This document shows, piece after piece, positions 12,391-14,560 of a stretch of 46,352 nt of DNA. The stretch's first letter is position 1; each line of letters starts with the position of its first letter. The notes under the pieces were generated by a model that saw only the letters and a program-made list of their open reading frames with translations, searched no databases and was not told the DNA's origin. The position numbers and the translations under genes were made by a program. This stretch comes from Perkinsus olseni (taxonomy: Eukaryota), in the NCBI GenBank assembly GCA_013115125.1, contig JABANN010000009.1, positions 124,001-170,352 on the forward strand, in the 5' to 3' direction.

Positions 12391-14560
12391 TCATGAATGT
12401 AGGAGGAACATGCCGCGAGAGGCCTACCATCTCGCTCACTTGTTGCATTCAGCCCGATGTGCCCAAGGTAAAGCATTGGTCCACGCTTGATTCCCAAACC
12501 AGTTGCAAAGGTAATCCTGGTCTCCCGCGTATATCAGAACTCGGAGCCCTCTGTCGAGCACAACTTGTGCCCTCTGTGGGCCGAAGCCGAAGTACCACCT
12601 GAGCGAAAGCAGCGCGGCCTTAATAGGGCACCAGCAGTATGTGACAGCTAAGCCGTACGAAGAAGAAAGCGTCTCGAACCGACCGAGTTTAGAGCACCAA
12701 CATAAACTCACTCCAGGCTGAATCCTTGAAAGCCACCCCCAATGAGTCGGGCCTGCAACGCTGCTAGCTCTCTCATGACTAGAGGGTCATTCAGATACTC
12801 GTCCAGCGAGGAAAAGTTGTAATTCCCGTGCTTGCCCAAGTCGTATCTGAGCCCACCTAAAATGACGCTCCCGCAAACTCCAGTTCCACGTTCGAACTAG
12901 CGTTTCCCGACAAGCCAGAGTTTCCAGGAGGATTGATGAGGCAGCATATGGTCAGCGGAGTTCCGAGCCTCAGCTGTGCCGCTGACAGACACAACGCGAT
13001 GATCAATACACCATTTGGAAGAGTAGCTGCTTTCAATGCGGCGAATAATGTTAAAGTCATTGTGCACGGAATACATAACACCTCGGAGTCGATAGGCTGT
13101 GTACCACAGTTTACATGTTGGAGCAGTCTCGGGATTCAAATATTTGCGAGGAGGATCCAAATCCCCTGCTTTCAAGCTCAGCTCAGCATCGAGGATGTCT
13201 ACAGCGTTGGACGCTTTGGGGTTGCGATAACTGAAAGGAAATTGAACGCCCTCACTGAATGACCATCAATAGCTCCCACTAGTCCAACCTCTTGCCCACC
13301 AAGGCGAGCCCGTCTTGGACACCCATCTCGACCACTACCTCGACACTGAAATTTATCACTAGGCACTCCAACTTGTGATTGCGGGAAGCCGTGAGATAGT
13401 CTCTCTATCGTAGTTTTTGTACCCTCCTCCTTCTAACCATGACGGAACGCCCAACTGCACACCTTATACCATGGTTCTGGTATCACGAGCCAGATATCAC
13501 TCGAAAGCAGATATCTTTCAGAGCCAATCCACAAGCGCGCAAGAACCGTGCGATATGGGCTCAACATGCTGCATGCCGTGCATTGCTATCCAAGCCATCA
13601 ACGTTACCGGAGAGAAGCATACTCGATTCCAAGCGGTCTCCCTGGAGTCTCTTACGGGCATTGCCTAGTTGCCTGCTCAACACACTGAAAGCCCGCTCGG
13701 CCCGAGTGCAGCTGGTCGGTGTGCGAACAAGGCTTTTCACGAATGCTCCAAGAGAGTTTCCAGACAACCTCAGGGCCTGAGGCTTTCTTCGCCCCGCCGA
13801 TTAGTCGTCCCTCGCTTGTGCACGCAGCTTTTCTCATGTTCCACAACCGAAGAGTGCCCATTCTTTGCAGTTCCTCGGGTCTAATTGTCTTACTGAAGAG
13901 GTGGCTTCATTCCACATTCTGCGGTGGCCATCATGCGATCGCCTTAGGAGAGAAGTCCCGTCCATGGGCATGGGCTTACGCGCGCGAACGGTGCTAGAGT
14001 CGCCTTCATTTGGATTATACAGACTAAAAGGCTGGCATATCAGTCGAGCTGAGCTTCACAATCTTCACGGGTTCGTTGCCGGGAGGGGTACGATTTGTAT
14101 CATATGAACGGGCGGCCGGTGACAGGCCTCGTCCGACGGGGGTTTGCAGTACTAGATTACTACGCCTTAGCGTTCATTCTTTTCAGCCATTTCTAAGCAC
14201 TTCTTCGTGAGGAGAACCCAATACAAAATTCAAGGGTATCGGCGGATTTTAGGGTTCCAGCTCGCTCACCGCTTTAGACGTTCTCTTGCACCCCTCGATG
14301 TACAACCTCAGCTTCAGCGATGCTGAATCAGCATCGCTCGGTTCATCTCATTGTAGGGTCTTCTTCGTCGGTACCGATGGAGCCGTCGTTGAATTGTGTC
14401 CCTGTAAAACCCGAAGACTCAGAGAGAATACGCTGGATTGGCTACCATCTGCGGGAAGAACTGCAGCCGCATAGCCGTTGCGGTACGAGCGGGAACACCT
14501 GTAGCGACTATCAATCATTAACTCCATCCCATGGCAGGCGGAGCGGAGGTGGTTGATGAG
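12391..14560 (-). pseudogene. Serine carboxypeptidase S10 pseudogene (paralog of 17060-20705)
   Basis: Retains [38 protein letters not shown] and the NSTTAPS exon. It has frameshifts, lacks the N-terminal GGPG and GESFAG exons, and a deletion removes the AGHMVP catalytic-His segment. Confidence 0.8.
13561..13800 (-). mobile_element. hAT transposase C-terminal dimerisation-domain remnant
   Basis: PEVVW..SLGAFVKSLVRTPTSCTRAERAFSVLSRQLGNARKRLQGDRLESSMLLSGN fits the hAT consensus W..LxxxAxxxLxxPxSSxxxERxFSxxxxxxxxxRxRLxxxxLExxxxLxxN. Lies inside the S10 pseudogene. Confidence 0.72.

Follow-up and report, generated by a model that had tools for sequence, protein, structure and literature searches.

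The 22-nt structure at positions 14313-14334 of the Perkinsus olseni stretch analyzed here (46,352 nt of contig JABANN010000009.1, hereafter the window) is best read as the excision scar of a DNA transposon. With a probability of roughly 0.87, we conclude that an element of the hAT superfamily inserted in an 8-bp word of a decaying S10 carboxypeptidase duplicate and was later excised, leaving a net gain of 14 nt. The scar belongs to a class that recurs through the genome with one geometry. It is probably not what killed the gene but a passenger in a relic copy, and it has no likely function.

The scar lies in a tandem duplication (about 10408-14560 against 15008-19720), each unit of which contains an LRAT-domain gene and an S10 carboxypeptidase sequence. 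The S10 features of the two units are:

17063-20340, minus strand: intact S10 gene (protein model P0079; PF00450, E 2.4e-91; Ser, Asp and His motifs present)
19423-19539, minus strand: homologous exon of the intact S10 gene in its short (empty) form, 117 nt, placed by exon mapping and alignment
14402-14484, minus strand: GT..AG intron of the relic (14445-14402) and what remains of the exon before it
14270-14401, minus strand: scar-bearing exon of the relic S10 carboxypeptidase, 132 nt long where the intact copy has 117 nt, placed by exon mapping and alignment
12448-12848, minus strand: the relic's surviving C-terminal S10 exons, which carry deletions and do not include the one for the catalytic His

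The intact copy covers profile positions 8-419 of the 420 in PF00450, a full domain. Every one of its exons maps within 17063-20340, and its product has 97% identity with a protein of Perkinsus olseni. Its own scars sit between exons, which rules out that they break the gene. The second S10 copy in the window is a relic gene. It matches P0079 at residues 782-833 and 867-992 only; no match was found to residues 561-781, 834-866 or 993-1060, home of the catalytic Ser and His motifs, and no S10 match was found upstream of the 14402-14484 stretch. With the Ser and His exons absent, Ser, Asp and His do not occur in one frame as they do in peptidase S10 enzymes. The intact neighbor is a full member of the peptidase S10 family (PF00450) and the relic matches part of it, without the Ser and His exons. 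Identity with the intact copy remains as high as 92% in one stretch of relic exon. When an intact ortholog of the relic gene was sought by protein search, 58 candidates yielded three proteins, none of them with the scar-bearing exon.

Two further observations concern the duplicated genes. The LRAT-domain duplicates (window 11176-12099 and 15751-16801) share 300-nt tracts that are 95-96% identical, close to introns of much greater divergence, a sequence pattern that suggests gene conversion or selection. Additionally, the public gene model P0079 joins the S10 gene with an IF-2-like one, probably because two neighboring genes were merged in annotation.

Within the relic exon the following features are found, T being the local 8-mer:

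14313-14334, no strand: 22-nt scar, T1-7 + reverse complement of T + T2-8; net +14 nt, with one departure at 14319
14316-14338, no strand: palindrome with 11-bp arms and a 1-nt center at 14327
14356-14359 (about 14358), minus strand: +1 frameshift upstream of the scar in the same exon, its exact base ambiguous in a run of C
14348-14350, minus strand: in-frame TGA arising from the +1, upstream of the scar

On the plus strand the scar reads TTCAGCG ATGCTGAA TCAGCAT, 22 nt standing where the 8 nt of T were. Relic and intact exon are identical at 81 of 117 columns (69%), and MAFFT aligns them with a single 14-nt gap and a separate 1-nt gap. The original prediction was of a 14-nt insertion at 14314-14334. 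Its size holds, since the net difference at the scar is 14 nt in all four pairwise gap settings (as a single block in one of the four), but its extent must be revised, as the whole structure is 22 nt and occupies 14313-14334. Both minus-strand readings on which the prediction was built, that of the relic and that of the intact paralog, are present in the window, and the proposed alignment of 14270-14400 with 19420-19540 recovers the net 14-nt insertion. The MAFFT gap falls 4 nt from the predicted bracket; as the insert duplicates adjoining sequence, either placement is equally valid.

The center of the scar, 14327, obeys the rule that the central base is the complement of the terminal base, and the scar 8-mer conforms to nTnnnnAn. 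The palindrome at 14316-14338 is probably the record of one opened flank hairpin. The departure at 14319, which lengthens one palindrome to 11-bp arms, is a transition, as in 35 of 47 one-mismatch scars. Among those 47, a mismatch adjoining the central block extends the palindrome in 3 of 4 cases, against 6 of 43 elsewhere (p 0.019, in a post hoc comparison that takes in the 14313 scar). The departure could reflect either an overhang that was longer and was retained at the join, or a transition that occurred later.

Triplets of this form are abundant. The window contains 10 perfect copies, and 24 with at most one mismatch, against means of 0 and 0.05 in 20 Markov shuffles, so the triplets are not due to chance. 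A further 120 kb of the same contig yielded 16 perfect and 26 near-perfect triplets at unit length L=8 only. In 400 kb elsewhere, a non-random sample of forty 10-kb stretches from 20 other contigs that are large and known from earlier matches, L=8 gave 46 perfect triplets and 69 with at most one mismatch, L=7 gave 0 and 5, and L=9-11 gave 0. The triplet is built from an 8-bp unit in all three sets. Over 566 kb, odd palindromes with arms of at least 7 outnumber even ones 325 to 57, and 84 pairs of odd palindromes are spaced at 7 nt, with no more than three pairs at any other distance. When the center bases were left free, they were the complement of T8 in 71 of 75 scars and the complement of T1 in 71 of 75, and the same base in one of 75 each. 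The perfect target words are all distinct (72/72), so that the scar is a shape and not a motif; an 11-letter core taken as a fixed sequence motif has 2 matches against 2.36 expected. The pattern nTnnnnAn fits 21 of the 72 perfect target words, with T at position 2 at a frequency of 0.48. Solitary odd palindromes also exist, 42 of 49 with arms of 9-29 bp having no partner 7 nt away, which indicates a repair that is stereotyped but not uniform. Perfect scars occur at a density of roughly 115 per Mb. Provided that the 20 large contigs sampled are representative, extrapolation to 39.9 Mb gives about 4,600 perfect scars and 6,900 near-perfect ones.

Three scars in the window (14313, 15240 and 17782) are +14 against their paralogous sites. 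The other scars of the duplication that bear on this are:

15240-15261, no strand: second scar, +14 against the paralogous site near 10620, in an inferred intron
17782-17803, no strand: third scar, perfect, +14 (aligned as 9+5) against a site near 12879, in an intron of the intact S10 gene
17243-17264, no strand: perfect scar in a putative intron of the intact S10 gene, opposite a deletion in the paralog

Some palindromes depart from this form. One at window 17970-18004, with 17-bp arms and a 1-nt center, has insertions against the paralog near 13041 and is probably a non-modal footprint. Two adjacent odd palindromes at L141:3228-3348 have arms of 26 and 29 bp, the longest in the 566 kb.

In order for a hAT element to leave such a scar, its insertion would have duplicated the 8-mer, as is seen at hAT elements elsewhere in the genome and is likely at 14313. 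Excision would then have left each flank sealed as a hairpin, with the complement of the element-adjoining base at its tip. Such sealing is established for hAT elements, whose transposases are described as putting hairpins on the flanks (PMC6900584, PMC4763223), and its geometry is seen here. Host enzymes may have opened both hairpins to give 3' overhangs of at least 8 nt. These overhangs, being complementary across the inverted 8-mer, would have annealed and been ligated to give T1-7 + rc(T) + T2-8, a net gain of 14 nt. From the geometry of the complemented center we infer that 3' overhangs are required, since opening on the other strand followed by fill-in would place the same base at the center, an outcome observed once in 75. 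Ac/Ds footprints have been described as palindromes centered on the complement of the element-adjoining base (PMC5873905), and the 71/75 complement rule at the scar centers is the Ac/Ds signature. Similarly, nTnnnnAn is reported as the target preference of the Hermes/Ac family (PMC10368747, PMC8961557).

Resident elements suggest a link to this geometry. A profile search of the genome gave 11 Dimer_Tnp_hAT matches. The element at G000:C293:336-4429 (L065:336-4429) is complete at 4094 bp, with 11-bp TIRs, an 8-bp TSD and a hAT domain; its TIRs begin CAGAGA and are short, as in Hermes/hobo. Its transposase is split by an intron. A second right end of this family, 97% identical, lies on C522. Another hAT family is collapsed in contig C521, where a 791-aa open frame has Dimer_Tnp_hAT and DUF4371 over cut-off; its ends occur on four contig edges and are identical over 73/73 bases. 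The clean copy of this family (C2937/C289) has a common 8-bp TSD and full TIRs. The other copy, at the end of G000:C1438 (L101:1470-1573) and the start of G000:C3003 (L105:1-135), is missing a few terminal bases and is flanked by T1-7 + rc(T) on the left and rc(T)2-8 + T2-8 on the right, all from one 8-mer. Among 200,000 random flank pairs, the left half occurred 1,190 times and both halves 0 times. This copy is probably an excised element religated between its two opened hairpins at the donor site, the C1438 end, C521 and C3003 start being one locus by inference across the collapsed contig. Alternatively, the element could have inserted at a later time in a scar that was already there and then suffered damage at both ends. 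The simplest reading is that the half-scar copy ties the scar geometry to a hAT element.

The elements found are few against the thousands of inferred scars. Target words at real elements fit nTnnnnAn fully in 0 of 3 cases, and one fits at one position, so the families found may not be the main scar makers. The TIR pattern of the first element has 36 genome matches, and 3 of the 30 inspected are element ends; a relaxed TIR pattern of the second has 21 matches against 13 in the control. A de novo TSD+TIR scan of the DNA fetched returned one complete element only, and no further complete hAT, MITE or MULE with a TSD was found. A Ku-domain gene at G000:C3024:69115-69644 (L146, L147), the single Ku locus matched, is consistent with end joining.

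Template switching and fold-back synthesis copy local sequence in inverted form. A templated insertion independent of any transposon, by double fork template switching or by polymerase-theta-type fold-back synthesis at a break, would accommodate the 11-bp arm of the 14313 scar and the solitary odd palindromes, whose arms reach 29 bp and of which 42 of 49 with arms of at least 9 are unpaired at 7 nt. Such an origin can hardly be correct, as it leaves unexplained the fixed 8-mer unit, the fixed 1-nt center (325 odd against 57 even, arms of at least 7), the complement rule (71/75) with the nTnnnnAn bias, and the half-scars around a hAT element. It is also very unlikely that the same hairpin route was the work of a MULE, or of another transposase that hairpins the flanks and makes an 8-bp duplication. 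The genome has 18 MULE transposase matches, several in long open frames, and Muta1 is described as forming flank hairpins and 8- or 9-bp TSDs (PMC5499845); yet triplets at L=9 are zero, and it is a hAT element that the half-scars surround. Moreover, according to PMC5499845, the Muta1 hairpin is sized at 43+43 nt with no base lost, and more than 90% of its excisions in yeast are precise. No MULE TIR or TSD was recovered from 10 loci of the 18 matches. Merlin elements have an 8-9-bp TSD and are reported in P. marinus without TIRs or TSDs (PMC8101967).

Returning to the hAT scar at 14313, the prediction that the insertion is derived and arose after the duplication is borne out. The short 33-residue spacing is kept in P0003, the P. 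chesapeaki ortholog, and in the distant paralogs P0005-P0007, which rules out the long form as ancestral. Furthermore, the 8-mer copied in the scar is that of the relic itself, with 3 of its 8 positions different from the paralog, and the scar is therefore younger than the divergence of relic and paralog. The claim that the scar is what frameshifted or disabled the gene is not supported. The +1 and the TGA are upstream of the scar, so the exon is already broken ahead of it; the Ser and His exons are gone; and the +1 and +14 sum to +15, by which the remainder of the relic exon regains its original frame. A scar of the same origin might instead have been what first inactivated an S10 duplicate that still worked, with the other lesions following later. 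The site is exonic and 14 is not a multiple of 3, the 92% identity of the relic exon stretch to the intact copy could mean a late loss of selection, and 2 of 119 scars have at least 30 open codons on either side in a 300-codon offset frame. We nevertheless consider a first lesion unlikely, given that the scar has 1 mismatch only while the exon is 69% identical to the paralog, that the exon has the +1 and the stop with most of the gene lost, and that scars are strongly depleted from long frames.

This depletion was measured with the 14-nt offset allowed, since a scar splits a frame and a plain ORF-depletion test is thereby biased. Frames of at least 200 open codons contain 4 of 119 scars against 19.3% of random sites (p 2.6e-7), long open frames being a mere proxy for coding DNA in this intron-rich genome. 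The prediction that such insertions can disrupt genes is thus correct in principle, 14 not being a multiple of 3, but is countered by the scarcity of scars in long open frames. The result fits a view in which scars persist mainly where they are harmless, consistent with landing in a dead copy. Perfect scars at L121:466 and L136:1951 are flanked left and right by long open frames that are offset by 14 nt, and mark candidate scar-interrupted genes.

Four of nine sequencing runs were compared at the locus. Two of these, X6 and X2 (the latter a possible source), carry the scar unchanged and show no difference over 13900-15087. X7 is divergent, with variants at 14396-14476, and the scar is not covered among the matches listed. 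X9 has intron-like joints and zero depth at 13900-14566, and missing cover says nothing on the allele. No empty or element-filled allele at 14313 was seen among the matches listed for the four runs, X9 having zero depth there.

Hermes nicks 1 nt inward. Like the scars of P. olseni, Hermes and hobo, Ac-family hAT elements, are described with an 8-bp TSD, nTnnnnAn targets and flank hairpins (PMC10368747, PMC6900584, PMC8961557), although the target bias is weak here (21/72). The Ac/Ds footprints of plants, Saccharomyces cerevisiae and Candida albicans are likewise palindromic insertions on a complemented base, and the account in PMC5873905 has hairpin resolution followed by end joining, often with microhomology, a further likeness. 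Those footprints are varied, with 28 types among 128 revertants and arms of up to 3 nt in Candida and up to 20 nt in yeast (PMC5873905). In contrast, in P. olseni a single product with the whole inverted 8-mer dominates and is fixed in a natural genome. The P nucleotides of V(D)J coding joints (RAG, Transib) are palindromic additions that arise, as here, when a host nuclease opens flank hairpins (PMC6900584). RAG cuts at the boundary and so lacks the 1-nt complemented center, and it has no duplicated target for annealing. Muta1, a MULE, shares the flank hairpin and the 8- or 9-bp TSD, and differs in its mostly precise yeast excision and a hairpin without base loss (PMC5499845). In rice, 8 of 94 excisions were reported as perfect, the others having deletions or filler (PMC4423477). 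A literature search, with most subscription papers outside its scope, gave no account of such scars in Perkinsus. Taken together, the mechanism is a known one with an unusually fixed outcome and a high density, linked to a resident hAT element.

DNA transposon excision is usually difficult to detect, given how variable the footprints are. A fixed 22-nt signature makes it detectable from one genome without an outgroup, and makes measurable lifetime transposition counts, target preference, selection against insertions and the host hairpin-opening step. For Perkinsus gene annotation, the scar class accounts for a recurring +14 indel. We also raise, as a tentative and rather doubtful hypothesis, that P. 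olseni has a near-fixed way of sealing hAT sites, with long 3' overhangs annealed over the inverted target, which produced thousands of scars beside few resident elements. If so, either elements are actively cleared or hopping is very frequent with little copy gain, a domesticated hAT nuclease is possibly involved, and past transpositions could be counted and dated from the record kept in the genome.

Elsewhere in the window, two other tandem duplications were observed at about 78-82% identity (5558-6730 with 7117-8330, and 44963-45273 with 45956-46277). A degenerate piece of a MULE transposase, interrupted by 3 stops and scoring below the family cut-off, is at 688-960 on the minus strand, and an ORF for a C-5 cytosine methyltransferase (PF00145, E 2.2e-10) is at 38916-39893 on the plus strand.
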